Source of the DNA: Candidatus Methanoperedens sp. | GTDB lineage: Archaea > Halobacteriota > Methanosarcinia > Methanosarcinales > Methanoperedenaceae | Direction: 5' to 3' | DNA length: 32,000 nt | NCBI GenBank assembly: GCA_041494705.1 | Contig: JBGQBI010000002.1 | Span: forward strand, 390,001-422,000 | Shown here: in pieces, positions 25,162 to 29,099 of the stretch | Layout of the letters: each line of letters begins with the position of its first letter | How positions within the stretch are numbered: the first letter of the stretch is position 1 | The notes under the pieces: model-generated | The model's input: the letters and a program-made list of their open reading frames with translations, nothing else | Told to the model about the DNA's origin: nothing | Databases searched by the model: none | Program-made: the position numbers and the translations under genes

Positions 25162-26151
25162 TTACTGCGTAATCCCCGTCACCACGTCTTTCTTGAAATC
25201 AAATACAGTCACGCACTCATCATTGTAACAAATATCCAATCTTGATGTATCTTCAATAACGCCAATATTTGCTGCCGTGTATCCTGCATTTTCAAAAAGC
25301 CTGATTACTTCGGATTCATTTTCAGGTAAAGACGTAACTATGAAACCGGTGGCGGGATGAATCTTTAACCACTGCACAAATTCAATATCATGCGGCGCAG
25401 GTATTTTTGAAAGATCAACGCGCGCCCCTTTTCCGCTTGTCTCAAGCAGCATACCCAGCGTTCCGATTAATCCGGGATTGCTGATGTCCTTTCCGGCCGT
25501 AACAAGTTTTCTCTCCCCAAGCTCCTGCATCACCCTGTATTTTCCGCGCACTGCCTCCGGCTCTTTCATGGTTGTAGAATCAAAACTATACGGCGAATTC
25601 GGGCCAGCTTTCCCATCCATGTCATAAGCAGCGATTATGGAATCACCCGCTCCTGCCGTGCCGCTTCTTATCTCGCAGCCCCTTTTTACGGTACCAATAA
25701 TTGCAACCGAGAGCGAAGTATAGGGGGTATCGGGATGCAGATGTCCGCCAACCATCGGAACTCCGAACTTGGCTATGCCATCCCTTATTCCGCGAAGAAG
25801 TTCCTTGCATGCATGTTTATTATCAGATGAAAGAACATTGACCATTGCGACCGGTCTTCCACCCATTGCAGCTATATCATTGACATTGACGAGTACCGAC
25901 GTGTATCCAGCCCACCAGGGGCTTGCGTTTACAAGGCGCCCCCAGATGCCATCGGCGGCAAACAGTATGTAATCATCGCCACCAATATCGATGACAGCGG
26001 CGTCATCACCGAAATCCACTATGGAATTTGAATATTCGGAGCGTACGCTTTCGAAAATATTTATCAGGTCTGCGATCGGTTTTTTCCGCGTCACGCCTTC
26101 AAATTCACGGATTTCTTTTGCTATTCTCTGTAAGTCCATTATACTGACCAC
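25162..26151 (-). CDS. AIR synthase-related (PurM/ThiL/HypE superfamily) protein, possibly methanogenesis marker protein 2
   Basis: PurM-type N-domain motifs (FGDDAAVIDIGG, AADGIW, NDIAAMGG) and a C-domain. The ~330-aa size and archaeal context fit the methanogen-specific marker-2 family, but I cannot confirm this by eye. Confidence 0.7.
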   Translation of the reverse strand: MVSIMDLQRIAKEIREFEGVTRKKPIADLINIFESVRSEYSNSIVDFGDDAAVIDIGGDDYILFAADGIWGRLVNASPWWAGYTSVLVNVNDIAAMGGRPVAMVNVLSSDNKHACKELLRGIRDGIAKFGVPMVGGHLHPDTPYTSLSVAIIGTVKRGCEIRSGTAGAGDSIIAAYDMDGKAGPNSPYSFDSTTMKEPEAVRGKYRVMQELGERKLVTAGKDISNPGLIGTLGMLLETSGKGARVDLSKIPAPHDIEFVQWLKIHPATGFIVTSLPENESEVIRLFENAGYTAANIGVIEDTSRLDICYNDECVTVFDFKKDVVTGITQ

Positions 26152-26164
26152 GCAGCATGATTAA

Positions 26165-27280
26165 TTATAGTTTTTGGGAGTTGGGGGAATAATCCGCTAT
26201 TACACTTTTCCTGTATGCGGCAAACCTGTCCTCAAGTATCGCTTCCCTTGCGCCCTTTACTATTGACTGGATAAAGTGCAGGTTATGAATGGACGCAAGC
26301 CGAAGCGCGAGAAGTTCCGATTCCTTAAAGAGATGGTGCAGATATGCCCTTGTATAGTTTTTACAGGTGTAGCATCCGCAATTCTTATCGACTGGCTCAA
26401 AATCCAGTGCGAATTTACTGCGCGCGATATCGATATTCCCCTCCGAGGTCATCAGGGTCTGGTGCCTTGCATTCCTTGTCGGGAAAGCGCTGTCAAAAAT
26501 ATCAATTCCCGACTCGATTGCATTAATAATTTCAACAGGCGAACCTACGCCCATCAGGTAGCGTGGCTTATCCTCAGGAACCAGCGGGACGCTGTATTTC
26601 AGTACATCATTCATTATTTCCTTTGGCTCGCCGATTGAAAGCCCGCCTATCCCGTATCCGTCAAATTCCATCCCAATCAGTTCCTCAGCGCATTTTTTCC
26701 GAAGTTCCGCAAACGTCCCTCCCTGCAATATCGCAAAAAAAAGCTGGCCTTCGTTTTCTTCCACATCTCTGGCTGCCGCAGCCCATTTTATCGTCCGTTC
26801 CATGGAAGCCTCTACAACCTTGTACTCGCTTCCATACGCAGGACAGTCGTCCAGAATCATGGCAACGTCGCTTCCAAGGATTTTCTGGTTCTCAAGACAT
26901 ATTTCTGGAGAATAGGAATATTTTTTGCCATCACGCAGGTTTTTATAAGTGATTCCTTCATCCGTAATCTTGAACGGGAAATCCTTGCGTATCATCTGGA
27001 AGCCGCCGCTGTCCGTGAAAATAGCGCGTTCCCAGTTCATGAATTTATGCAGCCCCCCGGCCTTTCGGATGACCTCCATACCCGGCGCAAGTAAGAGATG
27101 GAATGCGTTGCTGATGAGCGCCTGCGTTCCCATTTCGTACAGCTCTTCGGGTGTGAGCGTCTTCACCGTGGCTTTTGTGGCAACAGGCATGAAGGCTGGC
27201 GTATCTATGACGCCATGGATAGTTCTGAGTTTTCCTGCTCTTGCGCCTGTATTTTTATCTGTGTGAATTAGCTCGTACAT
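26165..27280 (-). CDS. tgt: Queuine/preQ1 tRNA-ribosyltransferase, bacterial type
   Basis: It aligns by eye with bacterial Tgt along its full length: [19 protein letters not shown], catalytic [20 protein letters not shown], and the zinc site [17 protein letters not shown]. The 371-aa length and lack of C-terminal PUA extensions are unlike archaeosine TGT. Confidence 0.9.
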
Positions 27281-27286
27281 TTTATT

Positions 27287-28291
27287 TTACCTGAATACCA
27301 GCATTGCATCGCCGAAACTGTAAAACCTGTATGATTGTGATATAGCCTCATTATAAGCGACCATTAACCGCTCCCTGCCTGCAAATGCGCTCACCAGCAT
27401 CAAAAGGGTGGATTTGGGGAGGTGGAAGTTAGTGATTATAGCATCGATATTCGATTTGAAACCGTAAGGCGGATAGATAAAAAGCTGGCTGAATCCATCA
27501 TGCGCTGCAATTTTTCCGTCCACGCATGAACTTTCAAGCGCTTTTACAGTGGTTGTCCCGGCGGCTATGAGCTTACCTTTTGTTTTATTGATTATTTCTG
27601 CATTATCTGAGCTGACTGAAATATATTCAGGTTCCATGTTGTGGTCTTCGATGTTCGCAGCCTTAACAGGTGTGAACGTGCCAAGACCCACATGAAGAGT
27701 GACATACGCAATACTTACACCTTTTTCTTTTATCCTGTCCAGCAGATGTTCTGTGAAATGCAGACCCGCAGTCGGCGCAGCAATTGAGCCTTTTTCCCTG
27801 GAATAGATTGTCTGGTATCGGTTCTTATCATCGAGTTTTTTCTTGATATACGGCGGGAGCGGTGCCTCGCCGATTTTTTCGAGAATATCGTTCAGGTTGC
27901 CGTTGCTGTTAAAATCAACAAGATACCTGCTGGTGTTGGAGCTCTTTCTGACTTCAAGGACTGTCGCTTCAATCTCGCCGAAATGAAGTTTTGTGCCTTC
28001 ATGGATATTTTTGCCCTGTATGAGACACTCGTATCCTGCATTGCTCTTTGAGATAACAAGCGCCTCCACGTGCCCGCCTGTACTCTTTTTGCCCTGGAGT
28101 TTTGCAGGGATGACGCGGGAATCATTTAGCACAAGGGTATCCCCTTCTTCAAAATAACCAACAATATCAGAAAAACGGCGGTGCTCGATATTTTGTCCAA
28201 GCACCAATAATCTCGATGAGTCCCTGGGTTCTATGGGCGACTGGGCAATCAGTTCTTTCGGGAGATTATAATCGAAATCAGAGAGTTTCAT
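27287..28291 (-). CDS. queA: S-adenosylmethionine:tRNA ribosyltransferase-isomerase
   Basis: MKLSDFDYNLPKELIAQSPIEPRDSSRLLVL, SRVIPAKL, and the TAGLHFT and AAGTT motifs are typical of QueA. There are 6 nt between its stop codon and the tgt start. Confidence 0.9.
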   Translation of the reverse strand: MKLSDFDYNLPKELIAQSPIEPRDSSRLLVLGQNIEHRRFSDIVGYFEEGDTLVLNDSRVIPAKLQGKKSTGGHVEALVISKSNAGYECLIQGKNIHEGTKLHFGEIEATVLEVRKSSNTSRYLVDFNSNGNLNDILEKIGEAPLPPYIKKKLDDKNRYQTIYSREKGSIAAPTAGLHFTEHLLDRIKEKGVSIAYVTLHVGLGTFTPVKAANIEDHNMEPEYISVSSDNAEIINKTKGKLIAAGTTTVKALESSCVDGKIAAHDGFSQLFIYPPYGFKSNIDAIITNFHLPKSTLLMLVSAFAGRERLMVAYNEAISQSYRFYSFGDAMLVFR

Positions 28292-28316
28292 CTGTCTGCT
28301 TAGATTACATTGTGGG

Positions 28317-29099
28317 TTAAGTAATTTTTCTCAAAATAATCTCATCACCGGGTTTTTTATTAAAAAATTGCGCGGCATTTCCCCGGTTCACCGCAATCTC
28401 AAGAAACCCGTGGCTTCCAATCATTGCAACAGGTTCGCCTTTTCTGCAAAACCCGTATGATTTATGGAATAAAATCCGGACATTCTGGATATCCAGTACA
28501 TCCCCGAATTGGAAATCCACCATATCCGAGGTTATGTTTGTGACAAGATTTCCGAACTGGTCAATGAAGATAATCCTGCCCTGAAGTGAGCCGTCTTTTT
28601 TCAATCCTTTTCCAAAATCAAGGTCCACATAGTCAAAAATCTGTTTCCCCACAACGCTTATGTCCAGCCCTTTTGAGATATGCGCTCCCACAGGCGCAAA
28701 AATATCCCTCCCGTGGAAAGTACTGGAAACCTGTTTTCGAAACAGGTTCGTGTTTGTAATCTCATAAACCTTAAAATAACCAAGGCTTTTCGCTGCAGGT
28801 AACAGGAGGCCATTATTGGGACCTATGAAATAATGGTTTCCGTGAAAATCCGAATCCGCCCTGATTGCAATAGCCCGCCGCTGCGTTCCGACTCCGGGGT
28901 CAACTACTGCAATATGTACCGTATCTGAGGGGAAAGACCTTGCACTTATCATTAATATGAATGCACCGGCGCGTACGTCATGAGCCGGCACAGAATGAGA
29001 GATATCAACAATAGTGGCTGACCTGTTTATTCCATAGATTGCGCCCTTCATGGAGGCGGGATAGACATCCCCGAAATCTGAAAGCAGGGTAATTACCAT
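28317..29099 (-). CDS. SAM hydroxide adenosyltransferase / SAM-dependent chlorinase-fluorinase family (DUF62) protein
   Basis: N-terminal ITLLSDFG...MKGAI and internal VVDPGVGT motifs are characteristic of the PF01887 family. It is the first gene of the four-gene minus-strand operon. Confidence 0.85.
   Translation of the reverse strand: MVITLLSDFGDVYPASMKGAIYGINRSATIVDISHSVPAHDVRAGAFILMISARSFPSDTVHIAVVDPGVGTQRRAIAIRADSDFHGNHYFIGPNNGLLLPAAKSLGYFKVYEITNTNLFRKQVSSTFHGRDIFAPVGAHISKGLDISVVGKQIFDYVDLDFGKGLKKDGSLQGRIIFIDQFGNLVTNITSDMVDFQFGDVLDIQNVRILFHKSYGFCRKGEPVAMIGSHGFLEIAVNRGNAAQFFNKKPGDEIILRKIT

Follow-up and report, generated by a model that had tools for sequence, protein, structure and literature searches.

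We examined four consecutive minus-strand open reading frames (ORFs) in a 32,000-nucleotide stretch of DNA (the window) from a Candidatus Methanoperedens sp. genome (GCA_041494705.1, contig JBGQBI010000002.1, positions 390,001 to 422,000). Searches with Pfam and NCBIfam models assigned them to a protein of the DUF62 S-adenosylmethionine (SAM) hydrolase family, QueA, a bacterial-type Tgt and methanogenesis marker 2 (mmp2). Queuosine (Q) is usually described as bacterial and eukaryotic, with archaeosine as its archaeal counterpart. A sequence-only reading of the same DNA had proposed that the Tgt-QueA pair was acquired horizontally, and had speculated that the DUF62 protein and the PurM-like protein (mmp2) take part in a variant pathway. 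Our analysis indicates that the cluster is probably a composite of three unrelated parts, queA-tgt, DUF62 and mmp2, and that the precursor preQ1 comes from a yet-unnamed source. The features of the locus, in window coordinates, are as follows.

28317..29099, minus strand: DUF62 / SAM hydroxide adenosyltransferase-family protein, 260 aa, first gene of the cluster (Pfam SAM_HAT_N/SAM_HAT_C)
27287..28291, minus strand: QueA, tRNA preQ1(34) S-adenosylmethionine ribosyltransferase-isomerase, 334 aa (NF001140, TIGR00113)
26165..27280, minus strand: Tgt, bacterial-type tRNA-guanine(34) transglycosylase, 371 aa (TIGR00430)
25162..26151, minus strand: mmp2, methanogenesis marker protein 2, PurM/AIR-synthase superfamily, 329 aa, GTG start (TIGR03267)
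29100..29151, minus strand: 52-nt region upstream of DUF62, likely the archaeal promoter of the cluster (TATA-like TTTTATA at 29130-29136)
29152..29227, plus strand: tRNA-Arg(TCG), divergent, upstream boundary of the cluster (ARAGORN)
24983..25161, minus strand: 179-nt AT-rich spacer beyond mmp2 with T-runs and TATA-like boxes (sequence read, ORF layout)

The ORF coordinates and the inspected junction sequences gave intergenic gaps of 25, 6 and 13 nt across DUF62-queA-tgt-mmp2, in exact agreement with the sequence-only reading. Gaps of this size leave no room for intergenic promoters within the cluster, and the four genes are probably co-transcribed in this genome, yet would not form a functional pathway unit. 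The TTTTATA element is placed 31-37 nt ahead of the DUF62 start codon. At the other end, transcription of the cluster likely stops within the spacer, which also likely carries the promoter for the S-layer multiheme cytochrome gene that follows downstream. All four genes showed dN/dS values of 0.04-0.13 against five congeners.

Tgt, QueA and the late steps of queuosine formation

Tgt scored 463.5 bits against TIGR00430 (cut-off 306.75), whereas its score against the archaeosine transglycosylase (arcTGT) model TIGR00432 was 160.7 bits, below the cut-off of 350. Its closest solved structure was Thermotoga maritima Tgt (2ash, E 2e-107), compared with 8e-28 for Pyrococcus horikoshii arcTGT. The Pfam TGT domain covers residues 12-365 of the 371-aa protein, and the arcTGT C-terminal domains (C2/C3/PUA) are absent. 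Aligned with the Zymomonas mobilis and T. maritima enzymes, the protein shows the motifs TDSGG, DDC, QGG, GGLSIGE, FDS and CGCYTC...HH, and with them it retains the catalytic aspartates, the Cys158 of bacterial enzymes, the pocket (GGLSIGE) and the zinc site (CxCxxC...H). Model scores and alignment thus agree with the earlier description of a 371-aa bacterial-type enzyme with this zinc site and without archaeosine-type C-terminal domains. The positions considered as diagnostic of a bacterial Tgt were the catalytic Asp102 and Asp280, Asp156, Gln203, the Gly-Gly-Leu-x-x-Gly-Glu pocket with a bulky residue at 233 (Z. mobilis numbering) and the zinc site; at the Val233 position Tgt has Ile, as does T. 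maritima Tgt. From the conserved residues, a specificity of the preQ1/preQ0 type rather than the queuine type is predicted.

QueA scored 394.3 bits against TIGR00113 (cut-off 267.45) and 423.1 bits against NF001140 (cut-off 324) with a match spanning residues 1-333, and its identification in the sequence-only reading holds over the full length. Compared with congeners, dN/dS was 0.04-0.10 for Tgt and 0.07-0.13 for QueA, and these low values show that both genes are maintained by selection.

It had been remarked that no epoxyqueuosine reductase, QueG or QueH, is visible in the window, which is correct. A search of the whole genome (2.06 Mb in 6 contigs, 99.5% complete, 0.17% contamination) did not find QueG, and located an intact QueH of 176 aa on contig 4 (200844-201344; 209 bits, PF02677 profile positions 1-175), amid unrelated genes and unlinked to queA-tgt. 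This resolves the concern over the epoxyqueuosine reductase; the actual gap lies at QueF and hence in how preQ1 is supplied. All four GUN tRNA genes (tRNA-His, -Asn, -Asp and -Tyr) are present, and tRNA-His, -Asn and -Asp read U33-G34-U35. The queA-tgt pair and the unlinked queH are therefore read together here as the predicted genes for all three late steps of Q34 formation. Judged by family membership and conserved residues, Tgt would insert preQ1 in place of G34 in tRNA-Asp, -Asn, -His and -Tyr, QueA would add the ribosyl moiety taken from SAM and so form epoxyqueuosine, and QueH would reduce epoxyqueuosine to Q.

The late queuosine pathway of bacteria such as Escherichia coli and T. maritima uses the same three full-length enzyme families, which score above curated cut-offs in the studied genome, with the same queA-then-tgt order and the same catalytic, pocket and zinc residues of Tgt. 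Unlike these bacteria, the host is archaeal and also has arcTGT and an ArcS-like protein for making archaeosine, QueF and the known precursor transporters were not found in its genome, and its queH is unlinked. QueC is present (186 bits, above cut-off), as is a QueD-like protein of the PTPS family whose 68 bits fall below the QueD equivalog cut-off of 89; QueE was not located in the genome. From QueC, the QueD-like protein, arcTGT and the ArcS-like protein we infer preQ0 synthesis and archaeosine at G15, both of which this genome appears to encode.

Distribution and origin of the queA-tgt pair

The distribution of the genes was determined in 121 genomes of the order, in which family f1 is Methanoperedenaceae. 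The numbers of genomes with each gene in the families f1 to f6 were as follows.

f1: QueA 32/33, QueH 33/33, mmp2 32/33, DUF62 31/33
f2: QueA 16/20, QueH 16/20, mmp2 19/20, DUF62 7/20
f3: QueA 0/27, QueH 0/27, mmp2 22/27, DUF62 0/27
f4: QueA 0/33, QueH 0/33, mmp2 33/33, DUF62 28/33
f5: QueA 1/1, QueH 1/1, mmp2 0/1, DUF62 1/1
f6: QueA 1/6, QueH 2/6, mmp2 3/6, DUF62 3/6

QueA and QueH co-occur with the same family pattern. Within the genus QueA was found in 30/30 sampled genomes, while in a sample of 301 genomes of the phylum only 6 carried it, namely the studied genome, one f2 genome and four of family f10. For gene order, we compared 20 loci from relatives, 80 from a search with a Tgt alignment (74 of them bacterial) and 6 further loci. 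The queA gene adjoins tgt in 20 of the 21 archaeal loci, and the same queA-then-tgt pair occurred in 71 of the 80 loci from the Tgt search, among the matches listed. Because this order is shared with most of the sampled bacterial loci, the archaeal pair is the common bacterial gene pair. Within the four-gene cluster only queA-tgt is a conserved unit; DUF62 and mmp2 adjoined it in none of the loci examined outside Methanoperedenaceae. The single f5 genome, G028, shows queA apart from tgt (L024:5496-8577), where its upstream end overlaps a gene for a NucS endonuclease and its downstream end one for a Trm5/TYW2-type tRNA methyltransferase.

In several Methanoperedenaceae genomes and in one metagenome-assembled genome (MAG) of Thermoplasmata, queH lies directly beside tgt or within a few kb of it. 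The older arrangement of the family was likely DUF62-queA-tgt-queH, from which the studied genome lost the queH linkage and gained mmp2 beside tgt. Broken copies were seen in three genomes: the tgt of G017 (L028:5598-6691) falls into two overlapping frames, queA carries in-frame stops in G019 (C199:1201-2056), and queH is split in G011 (C30:50590-51094). These reflect either real decay or assembly errors.

The bacterial type of queA and tgt could in principle indicate bacterial contamination or a mis-binned contig, as the source is a MAG. This reading is already refuted and has next to no probability left, because the pair sits on a large contig (window at ~390-422 kb) among an archaeal methanogenesis marker, the S-layer multiheme cytochrome gene and an archaeal tRNA, because the assembly has few contigs and hardly any contamination, because the GC content of the pair matches that of the surrounding sequence, and because every sampled genome of the genus carries QueA. 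In a quick maximum-likelihood tree, the archaeal bacterial-type Tgt sequences formed one clade against the sampled bacteria with a Shimodaira-Hasegawa approximate likelihood ratio test (SH-aLRT) value of 98, comprising Methanoperedens, f2, f6, Hydrothermarchaeota, two Thermoplasmatota and one 'Methanobacteriota archaeon'. Support for the archaeal grouping of QueA was weaker (88-89). These data fit one old acquisition, with later vertical descent and spread between archaea, but do not prove it. On this reading, queA-tgt would be a bacterial gene pair that archaea gained by horizontal transfer and that has since been passed on vertically in Methanoperedenaceae and several further families.

The bacterial type of the pair, the purifying selection on it and its restriction to few archaeal families fit horizontal acquisition and Q-type modification at position 34, and to this extent the suggestion of the sequence-only reading stands, with both genes intact. 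As a discovery it does not stand, because the same genes in relatives had already been reported. Castelle et al. 2021 (Front Microbiol 12:660052, PMC8204110) described QueA/QueH/Tgt in 34 archaeal genomes, 12 of them DPANN, in a set that includes 'some Euryarchaeota (Methanosarcinales)', and Methanoperedens genomes are in their data set. The core finding of queuosine genes in these archaea is thus already known. That report holds the same trio as the studied genome, but makes no mention of QueF, preQ0, preQ1 or precursor supply, and does not discuss the DUF62 and mmp2 neighbours. In the literature searched, we found no paper treating the precursor gap or reporting Q nucleosides in these archaea.

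DUF62 and mmp2 as neighbours of queA-tgt

The DUF62 protein matched Pfam SAM_HAT_N with 175 bits and SAM_HAT_C with 86 bits, both above the cut-offs, and aligned along its whole length with P. horikoshii PH0463 (2wr8) while keeping the DPGVG..RR and FHGRD motifs. Against the (R)-SAM hydrolase equivalogs NF053629 and NF058624 it scored 177 (cut-off 470) and 164.6 (cut-off 350), both below, and hence it counts as a member of the Pfam family only, its stereoselectivity for (R)-SAM being putative. According to a recent reading, DUF62 proteins hydrolyse (R)-SAM, the inactive epimer (bioRxiv 10.1101/2025.08.29.672840). With the (R)-SAM hydrolases PH0463 and MJ1651 the protein shares both Pfam domains, the full-length alignment to PH0463 and the Asp/Arg/His motifs, but it differs from them in its scores below the equivalog cut-offs and in that its host is not known as a thermophile. 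In other Methanoperedens genomes DUF62 recurs behind PolB, an ARMT1-like damage-control phosphatase and Ham1 (ITPase) (L025:987-6583 of G009; L027, L030, L038), and this house-cleaning neighbourhood fits the (R)-SAM hydrolase reading. The gene is probably a native archaeal one for a housekeeping enzyme of the (R)-SAM hydrolase type, and about half of the family has it upstream of queA.

The sequence-only reading had asked whether the PurM-like protein matches TIGR03267, and it does, with 480.1 bits at a cut-off of 365. mmp2 is present in 110 of the 121 genomes of the order, Q-negative families included. The marker occurs throughout the methanogens of the order, and the studied genome has a single copy, which is above the cut-off; only its place beside tgt is unusual, limited to a subclade, and adjacency to tgt was seen in ~10/32 Methanoperedenaceae genomes. 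mmp2 is the universal methanogenesis marker 2, and in one subclade of the genus it ended up downstream of tgt. The literature searched contains passing mentions of mmp2 only and leaves its function uncharacterised. In G029, a closed f6 genome, two matches of equal score (C1:728934-729899 and 1463467-1464432) suggest a recent duplication.

These distributions bear directly on the proposed variant pathway, in which DUF62 and mmp2, together with Tgt and QueA, would produce a new 7-deazaguanine derivative or replace missing steps such as preQ1 formation. The 25-, 6- and 13-nt gaps point to one transcript, the missing QueF leaves some step unaccounted for, and DUF62 adjoins queA in ~15/32 Methanoperedenaceae genomes by order-wide coordinates. 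PurM-superfamily enzymes use ATP to activate carbonyl or amide groups, which also speaks for such a role. However, both genes are single-copy in the studied genome and neither tracks the queuosine genes. mmp2 is found in nearly all methanogens of the order, including the Q-negative families f3 (22/27) and f4 (33/33), and lies beside tgt in only about a third of the genomes of one family. DUF62 occurs in 28/33 genomes of Q-negative f4 and was not found in the Q-positive genera g10 (0/8), g13 and g6. Neither gene was near queA-tgt in the examined loci of f2, f5, f6 and f10, in the four other archaeal loci from the Tgt search (Hydrothermarchaeota, Thermoplasmata/Thermoplasmatota, 'Methanobacteriota archaeon') or in the 74 bacterial loci. 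The variant pathway is therefore not supported; it is largely refuted by distribution, and we consider it highly improbable.

Outside the cluster, the window stretch 29227-31589, directly past tRNA-Arg(TCG), is AT-rich (GC 0.29-0.36) and contains ORFs without Pfam or NCBIfam match; it may be an integrated element.

The source of preQ1

QueF was not found in the studied genome, which gave zero PF14489 matches, and tblastn against it with three QueF queries from other archaeal MAGs reached a best E of only 0.33. The Q-precursor transporter families used for the search were those in PMC11130926, and QPTR/YhhQ (PF02592), QueT (PF06177), the ureide permease (PF07168) and HlyIII (PF03006) were not found in the genome, major facilitator superfamily (MFS)-type transporters not being searched. 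A preQ1-I riboswitch was likewise not found there. Across the order, QueF matches occurred in only 3/121 genomes. Two of them clear the Pfam cut-off, and both lie in foreign-looking islands with their own QueC-like gene. In these islands (L043:643-2782 on G010:C66; L044:7046-8861 on G061:C258) the QueC-like gene is divergent and most genes have no homologue in the studied genome; they may be mobile or viral 7-deazaguanine clusters for DNA modification rather than part of the tRNA pathway. QueF was also not found in four of the five other archaeal carriers.

QPTR was found in none of the 60 genomes from Q-positive families of the order, and in 14/33 genomes of Q-negative family f4. In one distant carrier, the 'Methanobacteriota archaeon' chromosome CP070767.1 (L050:1831-5059), a QPTR/YhhQ gene and then an ACT-domain gene directly precede queA-tgt on the same strand. 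This arrangement speaks directly for salvage, at least in the lineage concerned.

We also inspected the genes beside queA, tgt, queH and queC, and none of them was shared across families as a QueF substitute or preQ1 importer. These neighbours were HIT, M50 peptidase, phosphoribosyltransferase (PRTase), TusA, PolB, ARMT1-like phosphatase, Ham1, GT4, deacetylase, Trm5/TYW2, NucS, HisA/F, RpiA, Hjc, MPG glycosylase, MoaE/MobB, PIN toxin and cytidine deaminase. Two candidates were rejected. A 166-aa ORF upstream of queC was an artefact of a deaminase gene on the opposite strand. A small multi-pass membrane protein convergent to tgt (160-200 aa) was limited to 4 Methanoperedens loci (L025:9046-9591, also L026, L027 and L038), had no Pfam match and was unlinked to tgt in the studied genome. 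Its homologues there, 37-40% identical, lie at ~258.4 kb on C3 and ~326.1 kb on C4.

The pathway would draw its preQ1 from a yet-unnamed transporter, which is most likely, or from a yet-unnamed reductase. According to the latter, an endogenous route would convert preQ0 (or 7-carboxy-7-deazaguanine) to preQ1 by an enzyme unrelated to QueF, which would make these archaea de novo Q producers. QueC and the QueD-like protein are present along with arcTGT and the ArcS-like protein, QueF and the four transporter families were not found in a nearly complete genome, ~50 Q-positive genomes of the order share this pattern, and purifying selection on QueA and QueH implies that preQ1-tRNA is made. However, a candidate gene beside queA, tgt, queH or queC was not found in any lineage, and no nitrile reductase besides QueF is known. 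The QPTR gene directly upstream of queA-tgt in one archaeal carrier points to salvage, and MFS or other broad transporter families may include an importer. On balance we regard the endogenous route as unlikely, though not negligible. If it holds, biology would have a second way of forming preQ1, and these archaea, bearing archaeosine-15 and queuosine-34 together, would be the first with demonstrated de novo Q synthesis. According to a 2024 paper (PMC11130926), Q is synthesised de novo by bacteria alone.

Several observations weigh against the composite cluster with preQ1 from elsewhere as we propose it. About half of the family, and the sister genus g15 as well, retain DUF62 beside queA, and a local functional tie of the two, for example SAM quality control for the SAM-using QueA, is possible. 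The tight spacing suggests co-expression with mmp2 in the studied genome, and Q in the tRNA of this organism is inferred only from genes. With neither QueF nor a known transporter, the annotated pathway has no substrate supply. As to origin, one bacterial MAG falls without resolution among the weakly grouped archaeal QueA sequences, and both trees were quick searches with a pattern-biased bacterial sample drawn from the matches listed, in which no donor is nameable.

Above results yield a clear negative, with mmp2 and DUF62 outside the pathway, and a defined gap, the source of preQ1. This gap, with carriers that have neither QueF nor the tested transporter families despite genes for preQ0 and archaeosine, is the new point of this work. 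Methane-oxidising archaea with both systems are a natural case for what Q34 adds to archaeal translation, and for how the preQ0 pool splits between the queuosine and archaeosine pathways.

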